Source of the DNA: Amphiscolops sp. MND2022
Taxonomy: Eukaryota
Direction of reading: 5' to 3'
Assembly: GCA_964187785.1 (NCBI GenBank)
Contig: OZ076409.1
Coordinates: 5,458,001-5,522,000 of the forward strand
Length of the DNA stretch: 64,000 bases
Positions 27,207-58,822 of this stretch are shown one piece after another. The translations under genes and the position numbers were made by a program. The notes under the pieces are model-generated. The model did no database searches. It was not told the origin of the DNA and was given only the letters and a program-made list of their open reading frames with translations. Position 1 is the stretch's first letter. Each line of letters starts with the position of its first letter.

Positions 27207-27694
27207 TTTTTAGTCGGCGCTTTTCTTAAGAAAAGAGCCCGACTATTACAGTCACTCGTTTTTTTTATTTAAGACAGACTCGAAGCGACGAACGTTAAAA
27301 TTAACGTTCAACTACTAAACTACTAAATACAGTACTAAACTACTGGACCGGTAAAGGCAAACGGGGAGCGCATTCATTTACGTTTTAAACGTTACCTACA
27401 AGCCCGGACGGGACTATGGGGTCCCCCCTTTCGATTTTTTTTCGGCACTGTGAGACTTTTTTTCGAAACTTTTTTAATGTCCCCAAAGGGTCCCCCCTTT
27501 TAGTTTTTTGTTATTTTGCTACAGAATGCGTGTTTATAAATCAAAAAGGGTCCCCTCTTTTACATTTTTCAGCACTGTGCAACATTTTCCGAAAGAAAAA
27601 TTTTTTTTCGAAAATTTCAATTTTTTTTCCAAAAAATGTTTTGCGCTTTTTGAGCCTTAGATATAGCGCCGACTTGAGACGTTCCCGTCTTGTT
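27207..27694 (+). mobile_element. Non-autonomous Helentron-type (HINE/DINE-1-like) element, copy 1
   Basis: Subterminal IRs AGTCGGCGCT (27212) / AGCGCCGACT (27665), a 3' hairpin gacg..cgtc and T-rich ends. Related copy at 50197-50686. Confidence 0.7.
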
Positions 27695-28738: not shown

Positions 28739-29407
28739 TGTTACGACTATGCAAGGGTCGTTGTTTTGAACATATTTAATTCTTACAGTTCTCGTTGGTG
28801 TATAGAAGTTCCTAGACTCATTCTCAAAAGCATTGTCGTCTTCCACCCTCAGACTTTCTCCTGTTTTAGGTTTCATTAACTTCAACAGTTCTTTCTGGGA
28901 TTCCAAAAGTAGACATTTTATCTCAGAGTTATCTCTTGTTATCACATCCCTCAAGGAAGCCCTTAAGTTTTTCAAATTGATATTTTAAATTCTGGGCGAT
29001 AGGGCTCTAGACGGGCCTGAGACGGCCACTTCCTGATAATTAGTGTTTACATCCTCTACCGAAACTGGGGAAATTATTACATTACTTACGTTCTCAGAGG
29101 ACTCATGTTGATTGTTCTTCCTTTTCTGGCTTCTTGTAGATACTTCGGTGGAGAGATTAGGTTTTAAATTTTGAATTGATATTCAGTTATCCAAGGTTTT
29201 ATCCCAATGAACAAAGTACAAAACATGAATTCAGAGCACAGAACAACTGTTCCTTGAGTTTGAATAGACAAAAGTCCTTTACCCTTGGAAGTTTTTGATA
29301 TATATATATGGACAAATATATTATATATAGACAAAGATATATTATACATATATAAAGTAGTTTGAGGAATCCCGATCCTGACCAGGCAGACCATCAAATT
29401 AGGCACA
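28739..29407 (-). mobile_element. LTR/gag-start fragment (STRSQKRK...) ending in ...CGTAACA
   Basis: The minus-strand frame starts STRSQKRKNNQ (~29140) and continues as ORF 28724-28975. Similarity appears to stop at an ACA terminus (28739). Confidence 0.45.
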
Positions 29408-31054
29408 TTTTCAAGGCAAAACGTTTAAAATTAGTTTCTTTTCGCAACTAGAAATCTAACAAAATCAAAAATCACTGAGCAAAACCTTTCACCGAAGGCG
29501 CTTTGCGTATTGAAAAAATTTGTCACAAGGAAAAATTCACCTACCTCCATGTATGCGCAACCAGCTCTGCTGTATGGTAATATAGAAAACTTATGTGGGG
29601 GAAATGAAAAGTGTAACATGTGCAATTCAATTCTATCTTAGACAAATTGTGTAGTGAAGTGTCATTGACATTTCACACTCGACAAATATACGAAGCCAGC
29701 TTTTCTGTATGAAAGAAACATCAAAGCAAATTTGCCAGACTTCGTGCCATCCTGGCAAAAATTCTGGCAAAGGTTTGTATCAGTTACAATTTTTTGGCTC
29801 TTTTTTACAACCGTTGAGAATGAAGTTGTTCTGGTTTTTGTGAATTATACATAATGTTAAAACATGGGAAAAATGATTTACTCAATATCTCAGCGGAAAA
29901 TGATCTTAGACAAATCCACGGAAACAAAAAGTTGTAGATAATCAAAAGTTACACATATACTGCTTCTGAGTGTTTTATACAATCAATCAAGCAATCAGCA
30001 CCTGCCAAAACAGGTGTTAAGAACTGGTTTTTCTCATTGTTCTCGAGAAAGGTTGGAGTAAAACTAGTAACAGTTGTAAATTAGGTCCACTCTCATATAT
30101 GATTTTTCTTATGGTATACTCAGCTTGTATGTGACCCCAACAGGTGTTGAGATCAGGGTTGACCTTGAAACTTCCCTGATCAAAGGAACTTGCTCAACCG
30201 TTAGTTTTTGCGTAAAGGCTCATAGGAACAAAAATGTAGGGCATCAGAAAAAATCTCTTAAACAAATTTCAACTCAGTACTAAAAACTCACTGGTTATCA
30301 GGTGATAGAACTGGTGTGAAAATGGGTGTTTCTCCCTTTTCTCGTAACTGAGTAATCCTACTATAACGACTCAGGAAATCAAAGTTATAGACAAAAAAAA
30401 GAAAAATTTTTTTTCAGAAATAAAATTTTTATAACCCGAACCCAGCAATCAGCACCGGTCAAAATAGTCGTAAAAATGGGTTTTTATCATTTTTCTCGAG
30501 ATTGGTTGGTTCTGCTGTAAAAAGGTGGGGGACTAAAATTTTAGATATCCAAAAATGAACAACTTTTGTCCTTGACATTTTTTCTAACCTTGAACGCACA
30601 GGTGGGAAAAATAAAAACTTTGTTGAAAAATTTTTCTTTGAAATTATAACTTATACAAGCAAGGCTTGGAAAAAAAATTCATAAAAAACTTTTTTTCGTA
30701 AATGAAATATGCGAAGCCACCGAAGCTGTATTTATCATTCGAAGAATTTGTCTACGCGAAGCGCCTTCGGTGTGATAAATTTTAATACCTTAAACCCACA
30801 AAATAAAACTGTTTTTTAAACAAATTTGTTGAAAAATATATTTGATGAAATATTTTCAATTAAACTATTTTTTCTTTGATAAAAAGATATAGAAAAGTGT
30901 CATATTTGCAATTCGGATTATTAAAAACCCTTCAAGTCTGATCATTGTAAATCAGTAGAACATTTTGAAAAATTAAATCGATATTATTGTAAGAATGTAA
31001 TATAAAGATGCCTCTATCAGGTAAAGATTCACATTCAAGTACAGATGATCACAA

Positions 31055-34000
31055 GAACAAAACCAAACAACATGTTTGGTGTGAAGATTGTAATAAATTT
31101 ATCTCTGATAAAACAAGACATTTCTAAAGTGAAATTCATAACGCGATATCCCTTATCCTAAAAAGTCAACAAAATCAACAATTTCAACAAACGCAGAGCG
31201 CCTCCGGTTTAAAAATAATTGTGAATGAAAAAACATACATGAAACTTAAAATAAAACCAACTGGCAATCTTGAACATTGCGTAAATGAATTAATAAGTAA
31301 AGGATACTTTCCCCGATTTAAATGTCAATTGAGTTAGTTAGTTAGCTTAGTTTGTATAACACATCAACGGAGAAGAACATAGTTTTCACAAATTGTTAAA
31401 ATCAGATTTGAATTAAATATATATTAAAGAGAATGTTCACAACACGTTAATACAGAAATTAGATGCTAAACAATTAGAAGGATCAGGTTTTCAATTTCAA
31501 GAATTAGAGGAAGCCTTATTAGAAATGTATAAAATTAATGATTTCAAGCTTTTTCATACATTGAGTTTCCAGAGAAATATAGGAATAACAAATCAATTAT
31601 AAATTTTAAAAGTGATCAATTTTGTTTTTTATGGTGTATCTTAGCGTGTTTTTATCCGTTGAGGATCAAAAAACTAAACACCAAATTATTAAATGTAAAT
31701 GAATAAATTCAACCTAGATGGTTTAGGAATCCGTATGAAAGGTAAAGATATACCTAAGTGTGAAAGACTTAATACCCTCAATATAAATGTATTTGAACTC
31801 ACTGGAACAGTATGCGAAGCATGCAGAGCTGTGCTAACACCAATCCACATAAATGCGAACAATGATCAACCACAAATAGATTTATCATTGTATGAAAATC
31901 ATTTTTGTCTAATAACAAAATAACATTGTTTAATAGTTAAAGACTCACATAAGAAACATGTATGTAGAAGATGTTTGACAGCATTCAGTTCTGAGGATAT
32001 TCTCAATCAACACATTGACCGTTGTCAAAAACAAGAACCAACTAATGTCACAATTAGTTGGAAGGATCATCTAAAGATTGAAAATCACAATATGAAAATA
32101 CTTTACCTATTAGAGTAAATGCAGATTTCGAATGTATTAACCATCCTCAGAATAATCCATAACCGACAGCACTTTGTGTGATCCCAAAGTTACCTTGAAA
32201 AAATTTCCAATTGCAGTAGGATATTATCTAATTTCACCATTTGGAAACAAGTATTACTCATATTTCGGCAAAGGTTGTGTAAAATGGTTTGTAAAGGAAA
32301 TGTTGGCACTAGAAAAAAATGCAATTAACTATTTCAAAACAAACTTAGAGTTACAAACAACTCCTCAAGAAGAAGTAAAATTCCCAGAAGCTAAAGTGTG
32401 TTGGTTATGCGAAGCCAGCTTTGTTGTACCGGAGGCGCCCTGCGTATGCAAAAACCTTTTGATTCACTTACACAAAATGCTACCGAAGGCACCGAAGGCG
32501 CTCTGCGTGCTTTGCGTAAAGTTAGAAACCATGATCATCTTACTGGACACTACCGAGGAACAGCCCGTAATAAGTGTAATTTAAATTATAAACAAAAGGA
32601 TTCATATTTTGTTCCTATCTTTTTCCACAACTTTTCTGGGTATGAACAAATCAGACAACAACATGTTTGGTGTGAAGATTGTAATATATATTTCTGATAA
32701 AACAAGACATTTCCAAAGTGACAGTGAAATTCATAACGCGAGATCCCTTATCATAAGAAGTCAACAAAATCAACAATTTCAACAGAATCATCAACTTGGT
32801 CAAGATACGCAGAGCGCCTCCGGTGGAAAAATAATTGTGAACGAAAAAACATACATGAAACTTAAAATAAACCCACCTGGCAATCTTGAACACTGCATAA
32901 ATGAATTAAAAAAGTAAAGGGTACTTTCCCCGATTTAAATGTCAATTGAGTTAGTTAGCTTAGTTTGTAAAACACATCAACGGAGAAGAACATAATTTTC
33001 ACAAATGGGAAAATCAGATTTGAATTAAAAATATATTAAAGAGAATGTTCACAACAAGTTAATACAGAAATTAGATGCTAAACAATTAGAAGGATCAGGT
33101 TTTCAGTTTCAAAAATTAGAAGAAGCCATATTAGACATGCATAAAGTTAATGATATTCAAGCTTTTTCATACATTGAGTTGCCCGAAAAACATAGGAAAA
33201 ACAAATCATATAAAAATTTTAAAAAATGATCAATTTTGTTTTTTATGGTGTATCTTAGCGTGTGTTCATCCCGTTGAGGATCAAAAAACTAAACATCAAA
33301 TTATTAAATGCAAATGAATTAATTCAACCTAGATGGTTTAGGAATCCGTATGAAAGGTAAAGATATACCTAAGTGTGAAAGACTTAATACCCTCAAAATA
33401 AATGTATTTGAACTCACTGGAACAATATGCGAAGCCCGCAGAGCTGCGCTAAGACCAATCCACATAAATGCGAACAATGATCAACCACAAATAGACTTAT
33501 TATTGTATGAAAATCATTATTGTCTAATAACAAAATTACATTGTTTAATAGTTAAAGACTCACATGAGAAACATGTATGTAGAAGATGTTTAACAGCATT
33601 CAGTTCTGAGGATATTCTCAATCAACACATTGACCGTTGTCAAAAACAAGAACCAACTAATGTCACAATTAGTTGGAAGGATCATCTAAAGATTGAAAAT
33701 CACTATATAAAATTACCTTTACCTATTAGAGTGTATGCAGATTTCGAATGTATTAACCATCCTCAGAATAATCCAAAACCGACAGCAATTTGTGTAATCC
33801 CAAATGTACCTTTAAAACATATTCCAATTGCAGTAGGATATTATCTAATTTCACCATTTGGAAACAAGTATTACTCATATTTCGGCAAAGGTTGTGTAAA
33901 ATGGTTCGTAAAGGAAATGTTGGCACTAGAAAAAAAATGCAATTAACTATTTCAAAACAAACTTAGAATTACAAATAACTCCTCAGGAAGAAGTAAAATT

Positions 34001-37000
34001 CCCAGAAGCTAAAGTGTGTTGGTTATGCGAAGCCAGCTTTGTTGTACCGGGACGCCCTGCGTATGCGAAAAATCTTTTGATTCACTTACGCAAAATGCTA
34101 CCGAAGGCACCGAAGGCGCTCTGCATGCTTTACGTAAAGTTAGAAACCATGATCATCTTACTGGACACTACCGAGGAACAGCCCATAATAAGTGTAACTT
34201 GAATTGTAAACAAAAGCAATCAAATTTTGTTCCTATACTTTTCCACAATTTTTCTGGGTATGAACAAACCAGACAACATGTTTGGTGTGAAGATTGTAAT
34301 AAAAATATCTCTGATAAAACAAGACATTTCCAAAGTGACAGTGAAATTTATAGCGCGAGAACCCTTATCATAAGAAGTCAACAAAATCAAAAATTTCAAC
34401 AGAATCATCAACTTGGTCAAGATACGCAGAGCGCCTCCGGTGTAAAAACAATTGTAAACGAAAAAACATACAAGAAACGTGAAATGAATACAACTGGCAA
34501 TCTTGAACATTGAAAAAATGAATTAATAAGTAAAGGGTACTTTCACCGATTTAAATGTCAATTGAGTTACTTAGCTTAGTTTGTAAAACACATCAACGGA
34601 GAAGAACATAGTTTTCACAAATCGGTAAAACCAGATTTGAATAATATTTATATTAAAGAGAATGTTCACAACACATTAATACAAAAATTAGATGATGAAC
34701 AAATAGAAGGATCATGTTTCCAATTTCAAGAGTCAGAAGAAGCCTTATTAGAAATATATAAAGTTAATGATATTCAATCTTTTTCATGGATTGAGTTGCC
34801 AGCAAAATATAAGAATAATAAATCAAACATAAATATAAAAAATGATGATCAATTTTGTGTTTTATGGTGTATCTTAGCGTATTTTTATGCTGTTGAGGAT
34901 CATAAAAACAGAACATCATATTATTCAATGCTTATGAATAAATTCAACCTAGAAGGTTTAGAAATATCACACTGCATCCTTTTTGAAAAATTAAAGGAAC
35001 TCAATTTCGAGGACAAATCAATTTCAGTTATAAAGAACTATATCACGGGAAGAATTCAGAAAGTCACCCTGGATTCATGTAATTCTGATTGGATCGAATT
35101 ATATCAAGGTGTTCCTCAAGGCACCGTATTAGGGCCATTACTTTTCAATATTTATGTGAATAGTATGAAACAGACCATCTCCAATCAATGTAAATTGGTA
35201 CAATATGCAGACGATACCATGATATTATGTTCTGATAAAGATGAAAATCATGCTCTCAACAAGTTGGAAAAAGATATTGAACAACTTATACATTTTTTTG
35301 AAAACCATCGGTTGACAATCAATGCAGACAAAACAGAATTTATACTTTTTTGTAAACCATAAAAAAACAACGATGTCAAAAGTTACAAATTGCACGTGAA
35401 AGATCAACTAATTAAACATTCGAACTCAGTCAAATATCTGGGAATTTTCCTTGATCAGAATCTCACATTTCAAGATGAAGTAAAAAGTATTTTGCAGAAA
35501 ATGAGTTGTGGTATCAAATGTCTATACTCAATACGAGATCTTTTTCCTGAAAAAACACGATTGATGCTGTTAAATGCATTGATAGTTAGTCATCTACAGT
35601 ACTCGGCTGTTCTTTTGACCGGAATTACTGAAAATCTAATGACCACGTTAGAGAAACAACTTAACTGGGCTATTAGGGCATGTTTTTTTCGCACTAAATA
35701 CGATCATTCCTCAGATCTGAAATTACAGTATAAAATCTTACCGGTACGATATTTGCTCAACATGAAAACGGTACTTTATTTTTGGAAATGGAAAAATAAA
35801 ATGATCCCGGCTCTTATTGGTGAAAATGAACCATCAACCACTCAGCTCAGATTTCTTGAAAGAACAGATATACTTGTATATACTGGGCGCTGTGAGAGTA
35901 CTTTCATGAGAAATAGCTTTTTTAAGAAAACCGTCTCTCTATGGAACACCTTGCCGAAAAACTTGAAAACTAAATCGTACTCATATGCAACTATAAAGAA
36001 CAAGACCAAAGTTTTTTTCCTCAAACAACTTGAACGAGAAGTGGATACACCCGAGTACGGTAAAAAATGTTGGAGGGATTATCAATTTAGATGAAAGTTC
36101 TTTTTAATTTCGACCTCAATATTTTCAAATTGTATTTGTACACTACTTTTTTACTGAATCTTTCATGATTTTAGTAACAAAGATCAATACAGTGTTTTTT
36201 TTAAATTCCTATGAAAGTGAAAAATATATCAACTTTGAAAGACTTAATACCCTCAATATAAATGTATTCGAACTCACTGGAACAGTATGCGAAGCCCGCA
36301 GAGCTGTGCTAACACCAATCCACATAAAAACGAACTATGATCAACCACAAATAGACTTATTATTGTATGAAAATCATTATTGTCTAATAACAAAATTACA
36401 TTGTTTAATAGTTAAAGACTCACATATGAAACATGTATGTAGAAGATGTTTAACAGCATGCAGTTCTGAGGATATTCTCAATCAACACATTGACAGTTGT
36501 CAAAAACAAGTGCCAACTAATGTCACATTTAGTTAGGAGGATCATCTAAAGTTTGAAAATCACTATATGAAATTACCTTTACCTATTAGAGTGTATGCAG
36601 ATTTCGAATGTATTAACCATCCTCAGAATAATCCAAAACCGACAGCACTTTGTGTAATCCCAAATGTACCTTTAAAACATATTCCAATTGCAGTAGGATA
36701 TTATGTAATTTCACCATTTGGAAACAAGTATTACTCATATTTCGGCAAAGGTTGTGTAAAATGGTTCGTAAAGGAAATGTTGGCACTAGAAAAAAAATGC
36801 AATTAACTATTTCAAAACAAACTTAGAATTACAAATAACTCCTCAAGAAGAAGTAAAATTCCCAGAAGCTAAAGTGTGTTGGTTATGCGAAGCCAGCTTT
36901 GTTGTACCGGGACGCCGTGCGTATGCGAAAAACCTTTTGATTCACCTACGCAAAATGCTACCGAAGGCACCGAAGGCGCTCTGCGAGCTTTACGTAAAGT

Positions 37001-40000
37001 TAGAAACCATGATCATCTTACTGGACACTACCGAGGAACAACCCATAATAAGTGTAACTTAAATTGTAAACAAAAGCAATCAAATTTTGTTCCTATATTT
37101 TTCCACATTTTTTCTGGCTATGAACAAACCAGACAACAACATGTTTGGTGTGAAGATTGTAATAAGTTTATCTCTGATGAAACAAGACATTTCCAAAGTG
37201 GAAGTGAAATTCATAACGCGAAATCCCCTATCATAAGAAGTCAACAAAATCAACAATTTCAACAGAATCATCAACTTGGTCAAGATACGAAGAGCGCCTC
37301 TGGTGTAAAAATAATTGTGAACGAAAAAACATACATGAAACTTGAAATAAATCCAATTGGCAATCTTGAATATTGAATAAATGATTTATTAAGTAAAGGA
37401 TACTTTCCCCGATTTAAATGTCAATTGAGTTAGTTAGCTTAGTTTGTATAACACATCAACGGAGAAGAACATAGTTTTCACAAATGGGTAAAACCAGATT
37501 TGAATTATATTTATATTAAAGAGAATGTTCACAACACATTAATACAAAAATTAGACGATGAACAAATAGAAGGATCAGGTTTTCAATTTCAAGAGTCAGA
37601 AGAAGCCCTTTTAGAAATATATAAAGGTAATGATATTCAAGTTTTTTTCATAGATTGAGTTGCCAGCAAAATATAAGAATGATAAATCAAACATAAATAT
37701 AAAAAATGATGATCAGTTTTGTGTTTTATGGTGTATCTTAGCGTATTTTTATCCTGTTGAGGATCATAAAAACAGAACATCATATTATTAAATGCATATG
37801 AATAAATCCAACCTAGAAGGTTTAGAAATTCCTATGAAAGTTAAAGATATATCAACTTTGAAAGACTTAATACCCTCAATATAAATGTATTTGAACTCAC
37901 TGGAAAAGTATGCGAAGCCCGCAGAGCTGTGCTATTACCAATCTACATAAATACGAACCATGATCAACCACAAATAGACTTATTATTGAATGAAAATCAT
38001 TATTGTCTAATAACAAAATTACATCGTTTAATAATTAAAGACTCACATATGAAACATGTATGTAGAAGATGTTTAACAGCATGCAGTTCTGAGGATATTC
38101 TCAATCAACACATTGACAGTTGTCAAAAACAAGAACCAACTAATGTCACATTTAGTTAGAAGGATCATCTAAATTTGAAAATCACTGTATGAAAATTCCT
38201 TTACCTATTAGAATGTATGCAGATTTCGAATGTATTAACCAACCTCAGAATAATCCAAATACCGAAGGCACTTTGTGTAATCCCAAAGTATCAATAAAAC
38301 AATTTCCAATTGGAGTAGCATATTATCTCATTTCACCATTTGGAAACAACTATTTCTCATACATCTGCAAAGGTTGTGTAAAATGGCTTGTAAAGGAAAT
38401 GTGGACACTAGAAAAAAATGCAATTAACTATTTCAAAACAAACTTAGAATTACAAATAACTCCTCAAGAAGAAGAAAAATTCCAAGAAGCTAAAGTGTGT
38501 TGGTTATGCGGAGCCAGTTTTGCTGTACCGGGGGCGCCCTGCGTATGCGAAAAACCTTTTGATTCACTTACGCAAAATGCTACCGAAGGCATCGAAGGCG
38601 CTCTGCGTGCTTTGCGTAAAGTTAGAAACCATGATATTCTTACTGGACACTACCGAGGAACAGCCCAAAATAAGTGTATTTAAATTGTAAACAAAAGCAA
38701 TCAAAATTTGTTCCTTTATTTTTTCACAACGTTTCTGGGTATGAACAAACCAGACAACAACATGTTTGGTGTGAAGATTGTGATAAACTTATCTCTGATG
38801 AAACAAGACATTTCCAAAGTGGAATTGAAATTCATAACGCGAGATCTCTTATCCTAAGAAGTCAACAAATTCCACAATTTCAACAGAATCATCAACTTGG
38901 TCAAGATACGCAGAGCTCCTCCGGTGTAAAACTAATTGTGAATGAAAAAACATACATGAAACTTAAAATATATCTAACTGGCAATCTTGAACATTGCATA
39001 AATGAATTAAAAAGTGAAGGGTTAATAAGTAAGTAACATTCCCCGATTTAAATGTCAATTGAGTTAGTTAGCTCAGTTTATAAAACACATCAACGGAGAA
39101 AAACTTAGTTCTCACAAATGGGTAAAATCAGATTTGAATTATATTTATAATAAAGAGAATGTTCACAACACATTAATACAGAAATTAGATGATGAACAAT
39201 TAAAGGGATCAGATTTTGAATTTCAAGAGTTAGAAGAAGCCTTATTAGAAGTATATAAAGTTATTGATATTCAAGTTTTTTCATACATTGAGTTGCCAGC
39301 AAAATATAGGAATAATAAATCAATCATAAATATGAAAAATAATATTCAATTTTGTTTTTTATGGTGTATCCAAGCGTATTTGTATCCCGTTGAGGATCAT
39401 AAAAACAGAACATCATACTATTCAATGCCTATGAATAAGTTCAACCTAGAAGGTTCAGAAATCCCTATGAAAGGTAAAGATATACCTAACTTTGAAAGAC
39501 TTATTACCCTCAATATAAATGTATTTGAACTCACTGGAACAGTATGCGAAGCCCACAGAGCTGTGCTAAGACCAATCCACATAAATACGAACTATGATCA
39601 GCCACAAATAGACTTATTATTGTATGAAAATCAATATTGTCTAATAACAAAATTACATTGTTTAATAGTTAAAGACTCACATATGAAATATGTATGTAGA
39701 AGATGTTTAACAGCATTCAGTTCTGAGGAAGTTCTCAATCAATCAACACATTGACCGTTGTCAAAAACAAGAACCAACTAATGTCACATTTAGTTGGAAG
39801 GATCATCTAAATTTGAAAATCACTATATGAAAATACCTTTACCTATTAGAGTGTATGCAGATTTAGAATGTATAAACCAACCTCAGAATAATCCAAATAT
39901 CGAAGGCACTTTGTGTAATCCCAAAGTATCAATAAATCAATTTCCAATTGCAGTAGGGCATTATCTAATTTCACAATTTGGAAACAAGTATTACTCATAC

Positions 40001-40390
40001 TTGGGCAAAGGTTGTGTAAAATGGTAAAATGGTTTGTAAGTGAAATGTTGGCACTAGAAAAAATGCAAATAATTATTTAAAAAACAAACATAGAATTACA
40101 AATAACTCCTGAAGAAGAAGTAAAATTCCAAGAAGCCAAAGTGTGTTGGTTATGCGAAGCCAGCTTTGTTGTACCGGAGGCGCCCTGCGTATGCAAAAAC
40201 CTTTTGATTCACTTACGCAAAATGCTACCGAAGGCACCGAAGGCGCTCTGCATGCTTTACGTAAAGTTAGAAACCATGATCATCTTACTGGACACTACCG
40301 AGGAACAGCCCATAAAAAGTGTAAGTTAAATTGTAAACAAAAGCAATTAAATTTTGTTCCTATATTTTACTACAATTTTTCTGGTTATGA
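31055..40390 (+). repeat. Five diverged tandem copies (~1.6 kb) of the polB 5' half
   Basis: Units start at ~31055, 32645, 34264, 37123 and 38744. Each junction reads ...tctgg(g/c)tatga|acaaa(c/t)cagacaac. Only the fifth copy continues into GYDCH and the palm domain. Confidence 0.95.
34966..36202 (+). mobile_element. 5'-truncated non-LTR retrotransposon (CR1/L2-group RT) inserted in polB copy 3
   Basis: GVPQGTVLGPLLFNIYVN, QYADDT, NADKTE, KYLGIFLD, ..SLWNTLP. One stop at 35360. aaat duplicated at 34962-34965 and 36203-36206; the empty site ggtttagaaattcctatg is visible in copy 4. Confidence 0.93.
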
Positions 40391-42404
40391 TTGTCATCTT
40401 ATAATTGAAGAACGCTTAACACATGCTTTCAAAATGGGGTATGAACCAACAATAATTCCAAAATCAATGGAAAACTATGTTTCAGTCGAAGTAGGTTGTC
40501 AATATTTTTAGATTCAAAAAGATTTTTATCTTCTAGTTTGGACAAATTAGTTAGGAGTATAAACAGTTTTCCAATAATGCAAGAAAATTGTCTTAATGCC
40601 GAATTATTGAAAAAGAAAATGGCGTATCCTTATGAATACTTTAATCTTGATAATTTTCAAGAACCATTAAATCTAACAAAAGAAAACATTTGATCAACAC
40701 TAAAATAAGAAATCCCTCCAGATGACGAAATTAGCAGTACACAAGAAATTATCAAAAAGTTTAATATTACAAACGGACAAGAATTAACTATGTTGTTTAA
40801 AATTGGATGTTCTCATAATAACTGATGTCTTTGAGAACTTTGTGCAAACATTCACTGAAGAGTACGGTATTAATCCACTATCTCATACTCAGCTTCAGGT
40901 TATACAAGGAAAGCTGGTTTAAAATTGAGCAAAATCAAGTTGGATTTCTTAAAAGATAAAGAAATTTTATCACTTTTAGAAAATAATATACGTGGAGGAA
41001 TTTCAAGTGTTATGGGTGATTGGCATTTTGTGTATCGAATGTCAAAAAACAAATTTGATACATTGATGCGAATAGTCTATATGGATGGGCTATGTCCCAG
41101 TATCTTCCTTCTGGCGAGTACGAAAAAATACAGCTTTGTTCGGTACCTTTTATTCCGAATACCGAACAAGGCTGTAATTACAAACTAGAGCAACTAGTAG
41201 AAGATTTATCACAAGTACCAGATGATAATGAATATAGATTCTTTATAGAATGTGGTTAGGAATATCCAGCTGATATCAAAGAAAAAAGAGGAAACCTTTC
41301 CTTTATGTCCTTATCAAGTAGAAGCTAATTGTGAGTGATTCTCAGATTATATGATAATAGGTAAACAACCGAAATACAAACCAATCCAGAAACTTGTGTG
41401 TGACCTAACAAAACAAAAGTATATGATGCACTACAGGATGTTCAAATTTTACATCAACATGGGTATGAAAGTAACAAAAATGCATACAATTTATAGGTTC
41501 AAGCAAAGTCAATGGTTAGGAAAATATATTGATCACAACGACCAAAAAAGCACCGAAGCAAAAACAAACTTTGAAAAAGACCTGTAGAAGGTAATGAACA
41601 ATGCTTTTTTTGGTAAGACTTTAGAAAATGTAAGAGACAAAACCAATCTAGATTTCATTAGTCATTCTGAAATACAACAAATATAAAAAGAAAATCCAAG
41701 TTGGGTTTTAAAGGTATTGCGAATCATTATTCTACGTTTAGTGTAGACAAGTATGATAGAGAAAAAACACTCTTAAACAAACCATATTTTCGAGGTTCTC
41801 TGTGCTAGAATTAAGTAAACTTTTTTTTATGAAATTTAATATAAATGTTTAGAACAATATTGGCATGAGAAAGTACATTTACAATATAAGGACACTGACA
41901 GTTTTGTTCTTAGATTTGATGCAAACAAAGTAGGTTTGATGGATTTCCTATAACAAAAGAAAGATGAATTTGATTAAAGTGAATTAGATAAACATCATCA
42001 ATTACATGGTCCTATTACCAAAAACGTTATAGGAAAAGTGAAAATTGAAACAAGTCCAGATTTGGTGTTAGATAGCATCGCAGCTTTACGATCAAAGTCA
42101 TATTTTTTTTCGTATGATAACCCGAATGGTTCGCAAAATATGTCATGAAAAACAAAATAAACTAGCTTTGAATCCTTTTGACAATAAGCGTATGTACTTA
42201 AATCAAGTAAGAAAATTACCATGGGATAAACACACACAACAAAGCGATTGTCCATGTTCATATTGTGGGAAGTTTATACTTTTAGATATCATAAAGAAAT
42301 AATTGAAAATGAAACAGATGAAGAAATTCATTTAAACGTTTGGTATTGGAAAAAAACCCATCAACAACTTTTAAAACTGATAAGTGATCGAGCACATCTT
42401 TTAT

Positions 42405-42604
42405 NNNNNNNNNNNNNNNNNNNNNNNNNNNNNNNNNNNNNNNNNNNNNNNNNNNNNNNNNNNNNNNNNNNNNNNNNNNNNNNNNNNNNNNNNNNNNNNN
42501 NNNNNNNNNNNNNNNNNNNNNNNNNNNNNNNNNNNNNNNNNNNNNNNNNNNNNNNNNNNNNNNNNNNNNNNNNNNNNNNNNNNNNNNNNNNNNNNNNNNN
42601 NNNN
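42405..42604. other. Assembly gap (200 N)
   Basis: Run of n. Confidence 1.
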
Positions 42605-43806
42605 CCATCACTGCAGAAACTTGTCAGTTTGGGTGTTAGAACAAGCGCATAAGCTATATAATCAGCTACATCAATGACAGCACTGAATTTAAATTCTAAT
42701 CTAATAGGTTGACTACCAATATGATCTTTTTGTTCAGATAAGTCAAATACATGAAAATTACAATTTGTCCTGAATTTATGTAAACCAAAAAATGGCCTCA
42801 CTAAGTTAGTTTCACTTTTCAACCGATAGAAGTTTTCTCTTCCTTGATATGCTTCACGGTAGCTATCTCTATCATAATCACACTCAATGCCGTCAACAGG
42901 ATATTTTTTGATCCAATTTTACAAACAGCATTTGAAAAAGGTAAACGATCAATTATTGCATTATCATGTGTTTGCGAATCAATTCTATTTCTAGCTTAAA
43001 ATCCGACTTTTACGAAAGTTGAAGTAGATTCACCACTATTTCCCAAGTCAAAGGTTCAATGAATATTAGTGTTTACATCTTTTCTAAAAACAATTCTTTC
43101 GTCATAACTCAATTCAGTTGGATTTTTATTCAATAACTGATCCATTACAATTTGTTGGTTTTCTATGCTAGGTGTGAAGTGTGGAATATGCCAACCAATA
43201 TCGTTTATAAAAATTTTTGCAGCATCTACTTCATTATCCCTTATAATGGGATCGTTATTATTATTCCGTTTTAAAGTAAGAGTAGAACCCAAACCATATG
43301 TTATTTTTTCTTGATCAGCAAACCCAAATAAATCAGTTAGCTTGATGTTCACAAAGGACGTTCCTTTCTCTGTCATATTAGTAGTTAGTTCTAAATTTCT
43401 GGTTGCCTGTGTTTCTTCAAATCCATACATCAGTTCACTCGTTTGCTGACCACTAGTTAAACGTTTGTTCATTAAACTTACCGTGTGTAAATTATTTTTC
43501 CAAGGTGTTTCCCCGAACTGGTTGTCAGCTTAGCTTCACTAAAAAAGCAACAGGCCGAAAATTAATTACGCTCATCTGATCACCATCGGCATTATCTTGC
43601 ATCATCTTGCTTGAATACTTCAAAATCTCTTGATATTAATGATATTTGTAAACAGTTATATGCATCTTCTCTTCGCAAGCTGATTGAAATATTTGCATTA
43701 TTATTGTTAACTGTTGATAGAGTATTAAGTGAATATTTTATAAAACCAATTTAACGAGTATATTTATCCATAGCAATTTTCTTTTTCAATGAATATAATT
43801 CTATTT
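42605..43806 (-). pseudogene. Polinton major capsid protein
   Basis: Fragments 43056-43472 (LFGFADQEKITYGLG.TLTLKR) and a C-terminus FHVFDLSEQKD...PIRLEFKF...YALVL, typical of Polinton/adintovirus MCPs. Position within the element fits. Confidence 0.75.
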
Positions 43807-43879
43807 ATATTACAAGAAAAATCCTTATTTAAAATTTATACTTCTATTATTTTTACCAAATAAGATAAACTTGAAAAAG

Positions 43880-44407
43880 TAAACTCAGAATTTAGTTCAG
43901 TTTTATTTGTTTTATATACATCACATGTTTGTTTTAGTTTATTGTTTTCACTCAAATCAATTTTTTTGTCTTCTAGACACTTTGAATGTAGTTTACAGAA
44001 ATCATGTAGTGTTCTACCAGCAAGTGTATATTTCATAATATTTTGTTGTTCTTTTGTTTTCAGATACGCTCCAGCAATTTTACTAAATAAACATAAATCA
44101 GCTCCAATACCACTTGCTATAGGTACAACAATAATTCCAACTCTAGTAACACTTAATGTTATACATCTTGATGATACTGATACACCTAAAATCAGAATAG
44201 CACTAACAGACTGAATTAAAGCGGTTATAATTTTATATGTTTCAGATTTATTTTGATATTTTTAGCTTCAAGATTATAAAAACTTTTAACATCTTTTGTA
44301 TTTTGAATTGAATTATTGAAACTTTTTATTTCCTTCAACCGTATATTAAGAGATCCTTTATCTAAAGCATCTGATTTGCGTAAACTAGGATATAGTTTTT
44401 CACTCAT
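43880..44407 (-). pseudogene. Polinton hydrophobic/coiled-coil protein
   Basis: MSEKLYPSL..., a hydrophobic segment SAILILGVSV...VGIIVVPIASGIG, then HSKCLEDKKI. Frameshifted. Confidence 0.5.
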
Positions 44408-45199
44408 TTAAAGTCAAATAAAAACTTGGTTTTAAATTTATTTAAATGAACACTTGTTTTTGTAAAGCCTTCATTCTTTATAAAGTATGAAATTGAGCTC
44501 AGTATCGGTTAGTTTCATTCTATATTTAAGATAGACAATACCTTTGTACTGCTCTTTTTTCAAACTATTCAACATGGTTTGTTTTGTTGAATACCCTAAG
44601 TCCAATAAATTATACACAACATCTGATGTTTGTACTTTTTTCCCGTAATTTTCCTGCAAGTTTTTATTACCAAACGTTAGATACTCAATGAAACTTTGGT
44701 CTTTTTTTCAAATAAGTCAAACAATCTAATATACAGCTTTGCTGGCTTTGCCTAAGATTTTGTTCGAAGTTATTACGTAAAATGACTTGTTGGTCATTGC
44801 CTGGTTTGACTGCTTCCGAAATAATTTCTTCCTTTCTTTCTTTTAATTTAATTTTGATATCTCGTTCTAAATATTTCAAAATTTTTTAAAATTTTCTTTT
44901 TGCGAAGCCAGCTTGTTGTATTTTTCTTTATACCTAAGAATAACTGGGGCATTGACTACTACCTCGGTTTCACCGTCGTCAAAAGTAAATTCTTGTGTAT
45001 GCAAAGCGCCTTCGGTGTTTTGTAGGTGATTTAAATTATCAGATATGCCACCAAAGGCGTTTTGCATATCGTTAAGTTTTATGTTAATTAATTTGGTTTG
45101 TGATTCCAATTCTTTTTTAGGATTCTCAATCTTATCTTTTTGCAAACTATCGACACTATAACCAAATTAATGAATTGACATTTTTTTAGGTATAACTAC

Positions 45200-46053
45200 T
45201 CAAATTGATCTAAGAGTTTCATACTTTCTAACGTTTTGTTGTTAGATATAAATTTGAATACACTTCTTAGAAGTTCTTGTTCATAATATTTTCCTTCTAA
45301 TAATTCGTTGGTTTTGTCTTCTAAACCATAGGTAACCGGATTTGTTTTGTAAATTTTATGTTTTTTAAAAAGTTCTCTATTCCGAGTTGTTGTTTAACTT
45401 TTACTATATAAATTGCGTTTATCAGGAACTCTTACAAAATCTCCCACTTGAACTTTGGGATATTTATTATCACTACTAGGTGTTAGACTAGGTATTAGTT
45501 TTCGATTATTTGACATTTCAAATGGTGTCATTTTGGTTGTACCATGAACACGATTATTGTACTTTTCCAGAGCAGCATCAAGATGATTCAACCAACAAGT
45601 TTTACCTTCAAAATACATAGGTTCATTAATTAAGTCCAAAAGTGTTATATTGAATCGTTCAACAAAAATTGCTTGCAAATCTGAATTAGTTGAAGAATTT
45701 GATTGTTTTGCTCTTAGGTAGTGTAAAAATATTTTGTTATAAACCTCTTTACCTCTATCTGACCAAATTTTATCAGGTTTTCTTTTTGCTTTTTTATTAG
45801 GATTTTTTAAGGCATTTGTTGTATTTTTTCCGAATTTACCTTTAGGAGGAATCGCCCATGCATATTTAGTATAGTTATGAAACATTGCGAAAATAAACTT
45901 GTAGTTTTTGTTGTACTTTGCTAAGCTAGACCGGTCTATTAGATCAATACTCCAACACTCATCTCTATATTGAGTTTGTATTTGAATTCTTTGAAACTTC
46001 TTGATTACAGGAGAGAACATTTCTTTTGCAATTTCTTTCTTCTTTCCATTCAA
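45200..46053 (-). pseudogene. int: Polinton retroviral-like (rve) integrase
   Basis: WSIDLID, YAWAIP, IWSDRGKE, VERFN, YNNRVH.TTKMTP, VGDFVRV, GKYYEQEL. Confidence 0.93.
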
Positions 46054-46085
46054 TTATTATTCTAAAAATTTCACCTAATCGGTGA

Positions 46086-46148
46086 TACAGCTTCGCTGGC
46101 TTCGCATACAGCAAAGCTGGCTTCGCATACAACAAAGCTGGTTTCGCA
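46086..46148 (-). repeat. Three tandem 21-bp double mini-hairpin modules
   Basis: tacagcttcgctggcttcgca / tacagcaaagctggcttcgca / tacaacaaagctggtttcgca, followed by 18-bp modules at 46148, 46196 and 46221. Confidence 0.9.
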
Positions 46149-46339
46149 CCGAAGGAGTTTTGCTTACCAAGTTGTTATTATATTTTACCGGAGTTACCGA
46201 ATGCGCTTTGCGTGTTTTACACCGAAGGAGTTTTGCTTTTTTCCCTAATAAATGAATAAATATTTTTAAAAGGTTTATTGTGTGTAATTTTTTTTTTGGA
46301 TATTAATTGGTATTATATTAGGCCTTGATATTATAAAAA

Positions 46340-47247
46340 AATATACCAAATTTAAACAATTTAAAGGATTTAAACATTCTCATTTAACTAATCAACCAGA
46401 AGAACCCCAACTCAAACTAATCAGTAATACAAATTGTCATATGTTAAATTTTGGTACTAGTAGGTCAGGTAAGACATCTTTCTTAAACTATTATTTTGAT
46501 CAAACTAAATTAAATTTTATTGTATTCGGTAGAGATGAAACTGAACTCCATCATGAAAACTATATACCTTTATTTCAATTAGAAAACATGAATATAGAAC
46601 AACTTGCTAATTGAACTATAATTTTAGATGATGCAGGTGCACATAAAAGCCTTGCAACAAAAGTAGAAGATTGATTCAGATTTGGAAGACATCATAATAC
46701 ACAGGTTATTTATCTTGCACACTATGCAAAGGATGTTCTTCCAGTTGTAAGAGAAAATTGTTTCAAGTTTTATATCACAATAAATAATCCAGATAGTTTC
46801 TTTCAAACAATAGTAAGCACTTTTAGTATAAAAGAATTTAATTGGAAACAAAATCGTAGTCAGTTAGAATTTAGTTATGTTGAATTTGATACAAGATCAC
46901 AAAAGTATAAAATACTCAACCAGAAGTAGCAAGTAGTATATGATACAACTAAACATATATGGAGTCCTGAGGATTATGTGAAATTTGAAAGTTATTTTTC
47001 ACAGATGAAGAAAATAATAGACTAAAAGGACTTTTAGAAGTATTGTCAGATCAAACAATTGAATTATAACACCTTTTATTGTACCTTAATAATATGTATA
47101 TTATTGTAAACAAACTAAAATTAAAGTGAATGATTTAAAGGTAGATAATTATGTAGAAAGAATGCAAAGGCCATATATTTCAGACCAACTTAAAGAGGAA
47201 ATTAAAAATATAAGAAACGAACAAGCAATCACATATATTAAAAGTTA
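46340..47247 (+). pseudogene. A32/FtsK-like packaging ATPase
   Basis: GTSRSGKT (Walker A, ~46454), TIILDDAG (Walker B), FRFGRHHNTQVIYLAH. Internal stops. Confidence 0.85.
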
Positions 47248-47933
47248 ACTTTTTTGTTTATCATCAAAAATACAGCTTCGCTGGCTTCGCAAAATGGGTT
47301 TGACTTCTTAGTGATTTTTCATTCACTAAGAGTATATATTTCAGCACTAAGCTTATAGGCTACACTTAGGATGATATGCTCTTCTTGAATCTGCTTAGTG
47401 ATTTAGTGATTTTTAACTAAATAAATGAAGTGTTTAATTTGTGATAAAAATAGTGAAAAATCGTTAGGTGATGATTGTTAATAAAAAATGTAAAGAGTGT
47501 AATGTATTTTACAGATATTTACAAGTATAAAAAATTTTATAGTATAAGTAGAGAATGTTTCAATAAAAACGTAAAAAGGTGAATACTGTAACAAAGAATT
47601 CAATAAAAGATGTTTATCAAAACATATCGAGAGATGCCTAATAAAAAGATGTTTTGTCAAGAGTAATAATTTTACAATAATTGAAAATCATGATATTGAA
47701 AACAATATTATTACAAATGATAATGAAAATAATGTATTTACAAATGATAATGAAAATCATAATAATGAAACTAATGTTATAAATCATGATGATGAGTTCA
47801 AAGAATTATGCAGAGAGGCATGGGAAGAAAAATACAATTATTTATTAACAAACAGGTTAGAAGATAAAAAGGGTAAAAATGTAGGATTTGTACTGAATCT
47901 AATCCGCAATACCAGGTATTTAATCCACATTTT

Positions 47934-48870
47934 CTAACTTAAGGAGCTTGTGATTTTTTGGTGTTGACTTGTTGTAATGCATTCATAGTCCAGGAGTTTA
48001 TCAACATATGCTATGATTTGTTCACCAAGCATTGGAATATCACTACCCCTTACTTTTTCTAACACAATTAACTTGAGTTGATCTACAAGCTCAACTGGAT
48101 CAGATGGAAGGAAAATAAATTGTTTCAATCCACTTCATGATTGGGGTTGAAATAAACTTTTAACTATTTCATATCTACTTAGTTTGTGATCTCCATAATT
48201 TAGATTGTATTCCATATCATTCAGACAAGAATGAATTAGATTCTTATTTTGTATTTCTTTGTCCATTTGTGTTTTTGTTATAGAATTATGAAGATCCGGA
48301 TCATTTAAATTATAAGTGTTACGATTCTGGAAAGTCATCGTTGAACCTTTGATTGTTACTTGATGCGGATCAGCGGGGTTAATTAGGAATGAATTTGAAT
48401 TACCTTCCACAGGTTCTAAACTAAATAGCTTTTTGTTTTTGTCATTAGGCAAGTTAGAAACTGTCTTAACGATACTAGAATCAACTTGGTTTGAATTAAC
48501 AATATCTGTAACAAGTTGATTTTTACGATTAGTATTTTCATCATATTCTTTAATAGATTTTTGTAAATTTTTATTCAAAGCGTTACTCGATTCTCGTATT
48601 GCTCTAGTTTTGTCTTGTATTGCTTGTGTTGTAGTATGGGCAGAATCACGTAGCGCTTGAATTTGTTTAGTTTGGTTTTGTTTCTGGTTTTCAGTAGCTT
48701 CAACCTGCTTTGCAGTAACGGGTTCCAAAACTTCTTCCATATCATAATGAAAGTCCTGCTTCCCAAGTTTCGCTTTTAATCTTTCAGCTTTTAATAAAGA
48801 TTTTGATTCTTGTATTTTTTTTCAATTTTTCTAAATCATCTCGAATATGAATTGTATACATTCATTATAG
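47934..48870 (-). pseudogene. Conserved Polinton protein (coiled coil plus LPSDP.EL...L.L C-terminus)
   Basis: ORFs 48135-48740 and 47934-48128 (FLPSDPVELVDQLKLIVLEK). Confidence 0.6.
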
Positions 48871-48939
48871 AAGAAATATGTATATTTTTTTTAAAGTTTC
48901 GCAATCATAATAATTTTATATTTATATTTAATTAATGAA

Positions 48940-49352
48940 TTATATAATGAACTTTACCCAAATACAGGCCTCTTCCTTGATGAACAAATTTATAAAATGA
49001 GGAGCAGTTGCAGCTTTTATTCGAGGATTTTTACTCGCTGCGGCAGTTCCAGTATTTGCTGCTAGCTCTAATGCTCTGCCAGGATTATTCAAAAATTTCT
49101 TTCCAACCTTCTTAGCAGCTGTACCAATAGGTTTAAAGAAGCCACTCAATCCTTCTGCTTGTTTAGTTTGATCTGATACTATAGGTGACTTATTTCTTTT
49201 ATAAGTTGAACATCAACAAGTACTTCTTGATATTTTAACAGGCCAACCAGTTTTTTATTTTGAGTAATATCTCCAGGAAAATTTGTGGTAGCGGAATGAT
49301 GTTTTTCACCAACACCACAAAAGGAAGTCTTTTTAAATTTATTAAAGCTCAT
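48940..49352 (-). pseudogene. Polinton small basic core-like protein
   Basis: AEGLSGFFKPIGTAAKKVGKKFLNNPGRALE...GRGLYLG, an amphipathic/basic Gly-rich pattern typical of Polinton core proteins. Confidence 0.5.
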
Positions 49353-49633
49353 TTATTTGCAAGAAAAAAAATGTTTTTCTTCCCTTCGCATGCCTTATTC
49401 TTGTTTATTATATGTTACAAAATTTGAATGATTCATTTATTAAGAAAAAAACTTGTTTCTTAGCTTCGCATTAAGAAAAAGGTTGATTAAATCCACTTGC
49501 GGATATCTTGTTTAAAAACTCTTGGTTTTGTTTTTGTTTTGATAATTTCTTTTTTGGATTATTATTATGCAATTGACTTTCATTCTCACTATCCAATGGC
49601 TTTTGAATTATTTCAAATTGAGCTGAATAATTA

Positions 49634-50065
49634 TTAATTTTCTTCATTTAGGAATGATCGTTTTTGATGATATAGAATTAACACTGCATTTTTAAATCCT
49701 ATAATTTGAGTGAGATATAATATATACAAACAATTAGCTGCACAATAACTATCTTTTTTCTGAATTTGATAATCTGAATAAATACCATTATTGTGATTGA
49801 GTATAAGGAATCTCTTGATTTTAGTTGGAGGTGGACAGCCATATGAATCGAAATAGTTTTGATTTGAAAACATAACCTAGTGTGTTCCTTTAGTTGGATG
49901 TAAGTTAACTATTCCTGTCTTCGTAAAAAACATATCATCTCTCAGGTATATCCCGGTTGAGTTTAATTTGAGTATGTCTAGGATTTCTTTTCTTTTTATA
50001 ATAGAAGTTGCTTCCTTTTTTATTCCATATTTTTCAACAAATTCTTTGAATGATAAATATTTCAT
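49634..50065 (-). pseudogene. Adenain-like cysteine protease
   Basis: GIVNL...GTH*V (W to stop), YFDSYG, YQIQ...SYCAANCLY: catalytic His/Asp/Gln/Cys in the expected order. Confidence 0.9.
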
Positions 50066-50196
50066 TTAATATTTATTTTTTCCATTTAAAACTTGTTCAT
50101 GAACTCCATACTAAACTTTTGAGTTGTTAGAAATGACTAATTTTTATTGATTTGTCTTGAAAAAATGCCTAATTTGTTAACTGGTTACTTGATTAC

Positions 50197-50686
50197 TTTT
50201 AGTCGGCGCTTTTGTAGGGAAAAGTGCCCGACTCTTACAGTGGCTATTTTTTTCTTTTCTTTTTTTTCGTCGGACTACAATCTCACTCTGATTGGGCCAC
50301 TTTTCTTACAATCGAAACTTCTAAAACTACTAGCATAAGGCCAAGTCCGGTCAGCGGAAATTAGTGCAAAAGGGTCCACCCTTTCATTTTTTGCTTTTTT
50401 ACCGTAACCTACAAAACCGGACGAGACTAAAAGGTTCGATTTTTTTTGGCCTTGTGCGACTTGGAAAATTTTTTAATGTCTCAAAAGAGTCCCCCTTTCG
50501 AGTTTTTCTGATATTTTGCAACAGAATATATGTTAATAAAGACCAAAGGGTCCCCCCTTTGCATTATTCGGCACTATGCGACATTTTCTGAAAAAAAATC
50601 AAAAATTTCGTGTTTTTTTAAAAAAAAGTCTTTTGCGCATTTTGAGCCTTAGATATAGCGCCGACTTTAAACGTTCCAGTCTTGTT
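50197..50686 (+). mobile_element. HINE/DINE-1-like element, copy 2
   Basis: AGTCGGCGCT (50201) / AGCGCCGACT (50657). Shares tttgagccttagatatagcgccgact and gggtccccc cores with 27207-27694. Confidence 0.7.
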
Positions 50687-57175: not shown

Positions 57176-57535
57176 GGATGAGTATTATGTAAAACAAGTG
57201 TATCTACGACATATTTCAAGAAAATTTAGACAACGAGGCAGTGGGATTGGATTAGCGGCAGGAAATGGTTGCATAAATTTACCTTTCGCTAAATTTTTTT
57301 ACCAGCAACAAAATCATTTGGAAAAGAAATGCTCAAACAAAGTGTTTCAGAAGTATAGAATGTGCTCACGAATCAAGAATCACCTCGAAAAGCTGCCAAA
57401 AAGCAATTTCAAAGACACTCTCAAAGCAGATTGGTGGATGAAAGAAACGTGTACAAAAAATGTCGACAAAACCAAAATCCATTACTAACAGAAAACGCAA
57501 GCAGAGAAGTGGGTCAGATGATTTCTTCTCAAAAG
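57171..57535 (+). pseudogene. Polinton basic core-like protein (duplicate at 59826-60190)
   Basis: MDEYYVKQ...RQRGSGIG motif typical of Maverick core/pX-like proteins. Confidence 0.6.
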
Positions 57536-58792: not shown

Positions 58793-58822
58793 ACCTGGTG
58801 GATGTAAAACTGAATTCCCCCT

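Follow-up and report, generated by a model that had tools for sequence, protein, structure and literature searches.

Double-hairpin modules of 18 and 21 bp inserted repeatedly into one Polinton/Maverick family of Amphiscolops sp.

We analysed a stretch of 64,000 nt from the genome of Amphiscolops sp. MND2022 (contig OZ076409.1, positions 5,458,001 to 5,522,000; hereafter the window). It carries a degraded Polinton/Maverick, a virus-like transposon, whose AT-rich DNA is dotted with GC-rich units of 18 or 21 bp, each made of two mini-hairpins. Comparison with related copies in the same genome showed that, within one Polinton/Maverick lineage, these modules were repeatedly copied to new positions and in either orientation. 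The insertions are of fixed units, precise and polar, prefer T|A steps and are confined to one element family.

Results

The carrier element

Polintons, or Mavericks, are characterised by a protein-primed family B polymerase, an rve integrase, a double-jelly-roll (DJR) capsid protein, an A32-type packaging ATPase and terminal inverted repeats. Polymerase, integrase, capsid, ATPase and inverted ends were all found in the carrier, which is thus a Polinton/Maverick. The copy in the window has the following large features.

29395..50176, plus strand: degraded Polinton/Maverick copy ('Polinton 1') with polB pieces, DJR capsid gene, rve integrase and A32-like ATPase
31040..40390, plus strand: tandem array of five to six units of about 1.62 kb from the polB 5' part, with repeat spacings of 1615-1646 and 2860 bp
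34966..36208 (approximate limits, about 1.24 kb), plus strand: non-long-terminal-repeat (non-LTR) reverse-transcriptase fragment in one tandem unit (RVT_1, E 3.8e-22)

A terminal inverted match joins 29395-29435 with 50136-50176, Pfam matched pieces of a DJR-like capsid and an rve integrase, and tblastn similarity to the proteins of a better-preserved relative was collinear along the element. In related copies, Pfam detected rve (E 3e-13), DJR-like (E 7.8e-20) and Pox_A32 (E 4.6e-07) domains. Homologues of polB were found at E = 0, one of them with a precomputed PF03175 assignment, and inverted ends of 244 bp at 86% identity likewise spoke for membership in this group.

The polB 5' segment, which forms five to six units in the window, is single-copy in related elements. 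The repeat families of the array (D1-D10) range from 60 to 96% identity by family, and the array has multiplied seven module sites. The unit with the reverse-transcriptase fragment has a spacing of 2860 rather than 1618 bp, and the fragment itself contains no modules. An assembly gap of 200 N occupies 42405-42604, at the 3' end of the capsid gene and adjoining the open reading frame (ORF) after polB.

The genome that holds the window comprises 1.07 Gb in 1929 contigs, and the Polinton family within it is large, with 1484 to 3339 first-look candidates per query. The window copy is at most 83% identical to other family copies (one 687-bp stretch searched). A preliminary description of this DNA had named a 'Polinton 2' in the window; tblastn with the proteins of the family detected no second Polinton there, the six longest other ORFs had no Pfam match, and the label could not be confirmed.

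Module types and their sites in the window

In each unit, a terminal A (or TA) and a terminal T (or TA) enclose two mini-hairpins that lie side by side. The first has the sequence CCGRAGG or GCGRAGC, the second CGC-nnn-GCG or CAGC-nnn-GCTG. Type A, of 18 bp, has the layout A-[CCGAAGG][CGC-nnn-GCG]-T, and type B, of 21 bp, has the layout T-[GCGAAGC][CAGC-nnn-GCTG]-TA. A third, hybrid type C, also of 21 bp (ACCGRAGGCCAGCnnnGCTGT), joins the first hairpin of type A to the second of type B. Within TA-core-TA, the core measures 16 nt in type A and 19 nt in types B and C. The double mini-hairpin had been recognised in the preliminary description; its second hairpin had been drawn there as a triloop on a 2-bp stem, and the longer stems given here for types A and B fit better.

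The units are polar. Among 114 GAA/GGA heptamers that have a neighbouring hairpin (3-4-bp stem, 3-nt loop; the 3' side was inspected first), 113 lay 5' of that second hairpin. Loops of the second hairpin are variable and include TTT, TCT, TTC, GAA, AAA and others.

When the 64-kb window was searched at up to 3 mismatches, the type A pattern ACCGAAGGCGCTYTGCGT matched 22 times against 0.03 expected from dinucleotide shuffles, and the type B pattern TGCGAAGCCAGCnnnGCTGTA matched 18 times against 0.04, which bears out the earlier observation that two GC-rich motifs recur in this Polinton. All 40 matches fall within 29491-47291, where they form GC-rich islands in DNA of about 27-35% G+C, and none occurs in the other roughly 43 kb. 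The preliminary description had noted none in the retroelements, and the region of the reverse-transcriptase fragment (34441-36288) has no motif match. About half of the matches are products of the 1.62-kb tandem duplication, 18 of the 40 being paralogous copies of seven sites (34109, 34424 and 36969 among them). All 12 type A positions listed earlier were recovered, as were 10 of 11 type B positions; the last, at 44901, is a 16-nt truncated copy missed at up to 3 mismatches. That list was sound but incomplete, as paralogues in the tandem array had been partly overlooked. The sites are given below; 'pattern match' denotes sites for which the match itself is the evidence.

29491..29508, plus strand: perfect 18-bp type A close to the left end; a related copy with 80% flank identity has an empty site
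29554..29574, plus strand: type B with 2 mismatches; pattern match
29689..29709, plus strand: type B with 2 mismatches; pattern match
30710..30730, plus strand: type B; pattern match
30754..30771, minus strand: type A; pattern match
31191..31208, minus strand: type A; paralogous copies at 32807, 34424, 37287 and 38908
31813..31833, plus strand: type B in polB; paralogues at 33428, 36288, 37911 and 39545; locus L021 lacks exactly these 21 bp
32408..32445, plus strand: type B then type A with one TA in common; paralogues at 34026, 36886, 38507 and 40153
32482..32517, plus strand: nested type A; paralogues at about 34100, 36960, 38582 and 40227
38261..38278, plus strand: type A variant with compensated stem CAC...GTG; second copy at 39899, mutated copies in units 1-3
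44732..44752, minus strand: type B; pattern match
44901..44916, plus strand: truncated type B, 16 nt; not matched at up to 3 mismatches
44999..45016, minus strand: type A in ORF 44876-45166, read as TEGALH; pattern match
45050..45067, plus strand: decayed type A with 3 mismatches; pattern match
46086..46238, both strands: cluster of three tandem type B (minus), then three type A (plus), between the integrase and ATPase genes
47271..47291, minus strand: type B, perfect; pattern match
48407..48408, no strand: empty site; four to six related copies have a type A 18-mer exactly here

The B+A pair at 32408..32445 and the nested site at 32482..32517 form two module clusters that are both flanked by the CxxC and DHDH motifs of the polB HNH domain. 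The nested site consists of one 18-mer, with a TCT loop, lodged between the hairpins of a second type A unit, and nesting of this kind was found filled versus empty elsewhere (locus L001 against L018). Window positions 46069-46236 are absent from loci L016, L023, L024 and L026-L028.

A second, more distant family copy (about 76% identical; L066:5500-10000) lacks types A, B and C and has other small GC-rich units, in which GCGAAGC is followed by TACGC. Since these differ from the three types described here, the module repertoire varies among subfamilies.

Filled and empty sites

The census drew on 272,852 nt: 55 loci, two stretches of 30 kb that surround related copies, and the element in the window, with about 22 kb of later additions. 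Modules were accepted at up to 2 mismatches, and the two 70-nt flanks of each were located separately in all other sequences. The 205 modules found (117 type A, 61 type B and 27 type C) merge into 116 orthologous sites, and for 32 of these one or more homologues are exactly empty; most of the other 84 lack a comparator or lie within arrays. As a control, 205 random segments of 18 or 21 bp were drawn from the same loci, and none of the 160 with homologues showed an exact absence. The comparison of filled and empty sites that the preliminary description had proposed, with a difference of exactly 18 or 21 bp, thus came out positive.

The distances between flanks show the same two states. For type A the flanks were separated by 0 bp in 198 pairs and by 18 bp in 242; for type B the counts were 78 pairs at 0 bp and 42 at 21 bp, and for type C 58 at 0 bp and 83 at 21 bp. 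Other distances were mostly multiples of three and correspond to composite arrays. Filled and empty alleles were often skewed towards empty (2:28, 1:21, 6:17 and 1:15), with flank identities of up to 98-99%. As filled alleles are often rare, insertion is the parsimonious direction of change.

Individual alignments were equally clean. Pairwise comparison of 28 loci with the window gave differences of exactly 18 bp, for example for the type A unit at 48407|48408, and one site with otherwise identical flanks showed a stepwise series from empty to B to B+A. Between two copies with 93.2% identity over 12.9 kb, module insertions or deletions measured exactly 18, 21, 21 and 42 bp.

Target preference

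Of 61 type A sites, 44 had T at position -1 and 43 had A at +1; of 43 type B sites, 36 had T at -2, 38 had A at -1 and 32 had T after the unit. In the best empty alleles, the junction was TA in 18 of 32, compared with a TA frequency of 10% (p about 1e-10), a target-site preference of the kind that the preliminary description had proposed to test for. The other 14 junctions were non-TA, some with flank identities of 98-99%. At such targets the unit supplies both its A and its T and leaves the target dinucleotide unduplicated, which fits microhomology better than a staggered cut. In our reading, TA is thus a favoured T|A step, or a microhomology, and not a strict target-site duplication. Later units were often placed on the TA beside an existing unit or separated its two hairpins, which explains arrays such as that at 46086-46238.

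Confinement to one Polinton family

The type A 18-mer occurred 1131 times in the genome at up to one mismatch, and its reversed pattern did not occur. Thirty loci were listed from these 1131 matches. Two were the window itself, and the other 28 all contained DNA 70-80% identical to the Polinton of the window, which speaks against the motifs being equally frequent in host DNA, an outcome that the preliminary description had named as refuting. In the two 30-kb stretches, all 15 detected modules lay inside the elements and none in the flanks. The module-bearing copies are integrated in the nuclear genome, on contigs of 60-104 Mb. Outside this genome, the exact 18-mer had no match in IMG/VR, and a metagenome collection gave 35 single matches on contigs of 46-70% G+C with no similarity to the element, which we read as chance.

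Coding context

Long ORFs, of 150 codons or more, account for 46% of the DNA sampled and contain 99 of the 205 modules and 54 of the 116 sites (47%). As these shares are about equal, there is no depletion in genes. The insertion in frame that had been proposed was upheld by the codon phase. The density in ORFs equals that outside. Type A units in ORFs were in phase 0 at 30 of 32 sites, where they read TEGALR in one orientation and TQSAFG in the other. For all types together, the T|A junction fell on a codon boundary at 47 of 54 sites, compared with 49.9% of TA dinucleotides in ORFs (p 1e-8). None of the three types has a stop codon in any of the six frames; 12-35% of shuffles likewise have none. 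The phase rule thus suggests that the inserted peptide is under selection or that target choice follows a finer rule.

Module counts differed among gene regions when compared with the expectation from coverage. The N-terminal half of polB held 47 modules against 10.0 expected; other dense regions were the element ends (about 2-2.6 per kb), and segments of the integrase, of the N-terminus of the ATPase and of two ORFs of unknown function. Modules were scarce in the capsid gene (0 against 4.6), in the polymerase part of polB (3 against 6.2) and in two other ORF regions (7 against 44.6 and 3 against 23.1). The pattern is thus one of survival in a single codon phase and in tolerant linker or terminal parts of genes.

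One related copy has an uninterrupted polB frame of 1144 codons that carries four in-frame modules. When 17 polB homologues were aligned, the module peptides corresponded to gaps in the closest and in all distant homologues, and the same loops carried different short inserts in other lineages. Among homologues with about 64% identity or more, which are proteins called from assemblies and held by a public collection, 30 of 104 had module-type peptides; among distant homologues the number was 0 to 1 of 16, the lone match being to a loose pattern. The peptides are therefore not ordinary conserved polB sequence; such conservation, together with a lack of empty sites, was what the preliminary description had named as refuting its proposal.

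The middle of polB contains an Endonuclease VII-type HNH domain (PF02945 Endonuclease_7, E 1.5e-05, above the curated cut-off). This domain is conserved to homologues of 33-36% identity, one of them from a wasp (locus L064:5800-9231).

Hairpin stems

According to the parts of PMC13037366 that deal with these motifs, GCGAAGC and CCGAAGG are experimentally known DNA mini-hairpins that are extraordinarily stable and nuclease-resistant, beyond the prediction of standard models, in agreement with the exceptional stability earlier ascribed to d(GCGAAGC). The same source places CCGAAGG in the ssiA priming signal and GCGAAGC-type motifs in phage origins.

To assess pairing of the second stem, type A instances were located by their first hairpin, with the second left unconstrained, and crude de-duplication left 75 of them. 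Where both sides of the stem had changed, 19 pairs still paired and one did not; where one side had changed, 12 cases gave a mismatch and 11 a G-T wobble. Compensated stem variants occurred at several unrelated sites, whereas unpaired variants were found at one or two only, and this difference in recurrence fits copying of hairpin-competent units.

Other features of the window and of related copies

Direct repeats at 27208-27694 and 50197-50686 are 81-88% identical and 22,990 bp apart. The left copy is 1.7 kb upstream of the left end of the Polinton and the right copy begins just outside its right end; both probably belong to a host repeat family. At 57100-61150, ORFs recur at a spacing of 2655 bp (57111/59766, 57543/60198 and 58060/60715), which indicates another tandem duplication, outside the module-bearing element. 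Two related copies (L062:4174-4271 and L065:4247-4344) have an imperfect palindrome of about 100 bp, 79-80% self-complementary, at or near the 3' end of the ATPase gene and adjoining the next ORF.

Discussion

The preliminary description had proposed a micro mobile element that spread in a viral genome while reading frames were kept open, and the empty sites, the confinement to one family and the codon phase support that proposal. We consider it probable that these are ultra-short GC-rich insertion modules, selfish within a selfish element, that spread by copy-insertion through template switching. During replication of the element, a nascent 3' end would leave its template, copy one module from another place or molecule and then return. 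T/A microhomology at both borders of the module may guide the switch and help the return, which would be promoted by folding of the nascent module into its two stable hairpins; no dedicated transposase would be required. Such a process would explain why modules occur in both orientations, in arrays and nested in one another, why there are neither terminal inverted repeats nor a transposase, why an intact hairpin is needed and why the modules are confined to an element that replicates.

The survival of units in one phase and in tolerant parts of genes, together with lengths that are multiples of three, suggests that the six or seven added residues are harmless. The phase rule and the avoidance of the capsid gene and of the polymerase part would otherwise be unexpected, and we infer from them that the units are selfish and that their spread dates from the time when the lineage was functional.

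Several observations weigh against this account or limit how far it can be taken. The template switch is inferred, and the borders of the units are very exact, whereas repair-type processes usually give ragged lengths. Over about 16.5 kb compared at 97-98% identity there was no insertion or deletion of a whole module, and a 6-bp deletion inside one module was the sole module change; turnover must therefore be slow relative to point substitution. At a hot site near the ATPase/orf302 junction, presence and absence were discordant with the tree of the surrounding 3 kb, and a whole-locus tree of 30 copies did not yield single gains there, so that recombination, recurrent insertion or precise loss is needed. 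The sampling also has its biases: 28 loci were selected because they hold a type A module, which makes the regional densities indicative only, and overlap of loci with each other or with the 30-kb stretches inflates the allele counts per site, though not the number of sites.

The structural evidence is likewise open to objection. Two CpG transitions suffice to reach 14 of the 19 compensatory pairs (CAC...GTG, TGC...GCA), which weakens the covariation; on the other side, the double CpG outcome that breaks pairing (CAC...GCA) was never seen, the double-wobble outcome was seen once, and four compensatory pairs are transversion pairs (AGC...GCT). Nearest-neighbour DNA folding did not separate single modules from shuffles (z -0.02 to -0.72) and gave the second hairpin alone, at about -2 kcal/mol. 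We rejected such folding as evidence either way, since standard parameters miss mini-hairpin stability in the account given by PMC13037366, and the structural argument accordingly rests on the published mini-hairpin data and on covariation.

A route driven by an enzyme would explain the exact borders and the T|A preference more directly. A structure-specific nuclease would recognise the extruded double hairpin and cut at its TA borders and at T|A targets, moving the unit by cut- or copy-and-paste. That the variants found at several sites are the hairpin-competent ones would suit such recognition, and the patchy distribution at the hot site could reflect precise excision. We nevertheless think this route unlikely, though worth keeping in view. 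The cores have no terminal inverted repeats, targets other than TA are not duplicated, no excision footprints were identified, and Pfam detected no HUH/Y1 or other transposase among the ORFs of the element, a search that covered the element and not the rest of the host genome. As to the nuclease, the Endonuclease VII-type HNH domain in the polymerase of the family (PF02945) or a host enzyme is a candidate about which we are just as doubtful, because the HNH domain is also present in the distant polB homologues that have module peptides in 0 to 1 of 16 cases. A little less probable still is that the modules are selected cis-acting signals, that is, single-stranded DNA (ssDNA) sites for priming or protein binding that aid replication or packaging, with their spread into genes as a by-product. 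The occurrence of both heptamers in ssDNA initiation signals and phage origins, in the portions of PMC13037366 that treat them, would agree with such a role, as would the density near both element ends and the paired changes that keep the stems. It leaves unexplained how identical units reach new sites, however, and these sites differ between close copies, with many copies lacking any given one; in one related copy the terminal inverted repeats are free of modules. Nor is there a strong strand bias: type A counts are 7 plus and 17 minus on the left and 21 plus and 13 minus on the right, those of type B are 9 plus and 4 minus on the left and 11 plus and 16 minus on the right, and what bias there is follows partly trivially from the inverted ends. 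A role as an ssDNA signal is, besides, compatible with either the template-switch or the nuclease route.

It is very improbable that the modules are ancestral and that the empty sites arose by precise, hairpin-mediated deletion. Hairpins do promote slippage deletions, and the 6-bp deletion within a module was seen. Filled alleles are nevertheless rare among many diverged empty ones (1 of 22, 2 of 30), near-identical units occur at non-homologous sites with flanks just 70-80% identical between copies, units are nested in and adjoin one another, and the peptides are missing from close and distant protein homologues alike. Hardly credible, finally, is a convergent protein motif, with TEGALR and the like selected as such, or an artefact of assembly. 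The strong codon-phase bias would be expected of a protein motif, but the two orientations give different peptides, about half of the sites are outside long ORFs, and there are hundreds of module copies, with the peptides also found in the public protein collection.

Template-switch copy-insertion thus remains the reading that we prefer. A more far-reaching version, possible but held tentatively, is that no self-propagating DNA units shorter than these 16- and 19-nt cores have yet been seen. They would move by transposase-free template switching on the ssDNA of protein-primed replication, or be mobilised by the HNH domain, and selection would have tuned their length to codons, so that they colonise genes and provide a steady source of new surface loops.

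Comparison with known systems

A full-text literature search returned no account of such modules in Polintons or Mavericks. The closest analogues are the GC clusters of mitochondria. Mobile GC clusters of yeast mitochondrial DNA, such as GC42, are GC-rich hairpins of 30-60 nt that are mostly intergenic, in the sections of Wu and Hao (2015, PMC4478555) on which we draw. As described there, they have in common with the modules GC-rich hairpins in AT-rich DNA, sporadic presence or absence between close genomes, short identical flanks, conserved stems, variable loops, and merging and shuffling. In the modules, such polymorphism took the form of exact empties at 32 of 116 sites against 0 of 160 controls. 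The clusters covered by that source are mitochondrial and mostly intergenic, whereas the modules have cores of 16-19 nt and lie in a nuclear Polinton, on nuclear contigs, with equal density in genes (47% of sites in ORFs) and in one codon phase.

The double-hairpin elements of Allomyces mitochondrial DNA are reportedly 26-79 bp long and organellar. They are said to resemble the modules in having two stem-loops, a high G+C content, a mobility inferred from relatives and some coding copies, but to have no reported codon-phase rule or T|A preference, both of which are present here. Rickettsia palindromic elements, reportedly about 100-150 bp long and located in frame in genes of a bacterial chromosome, are by the same token selfish palindromic repeats that add a tolerated peptide. 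Tolerated insertion in frame is also seen in the modules, four of which occur in an open polB of 1144 aa whose close homologues lack the peptides; in size (18-21 bp) and setting (one viral-type element in a eukaryotic genome of 1.07 Gb) they differ from the bacterial units.

Stowaway and other Tc1-mariner-type miniature inverted-repeat transposable elements (MITEs) have a TA target-site duplication and terminal inverted repeats. With Stowaway MITEs the modules have in common that they are short, non-coding, high-copy insertions flanked by TA. They are far smaller, however, do not duplicate non-TA targets and have no terminal inverted repeats, the ends of the 16- and 19-nt cores not being reverse complements. 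Nor did Pfam find in the ORFs of the element the HUH (Y1) transposase typical of REP/RAYT or IS200/IS605 systems.

The mini-hairpins of ssDNA origins and ssi signals have heptamers identical to those of the modules, one strand of which is unusually stable and nuclease-resistant, as far as PMC13037366 treats them. In the portion of the source concerned, they are single functional sites of phages or plasmids, whereas the modules are dispersed in genes at positions that vary between copies. Hairpin repeats of giant viruses, as outlined in a 2026 preprint, are intergenic and tandem and are explained by a slippage model, unlike the modules, which are dispersed and in frame.

Conclusions

Selfish hairpins in AT-rich DNA were so far known from mitochondria and Rickettsia; with the modules, a nuclear virus-like transposon joins these settings. 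At 18-21 bp they are far below the size of any classical transposon and among the shortest mobile DNA units seen. With their empty sites, T|A preference, polar anatomy and codon phase, they provide a concrete system for the copying of short structured DNA. The hundreds to thousands of Polinton copies in this genome can be assigned to lineages with the modules as ready-made markers, and the modules are also a natural experiment on how far polymerase, integrase and ATPase tolerate six or seven extra residues.

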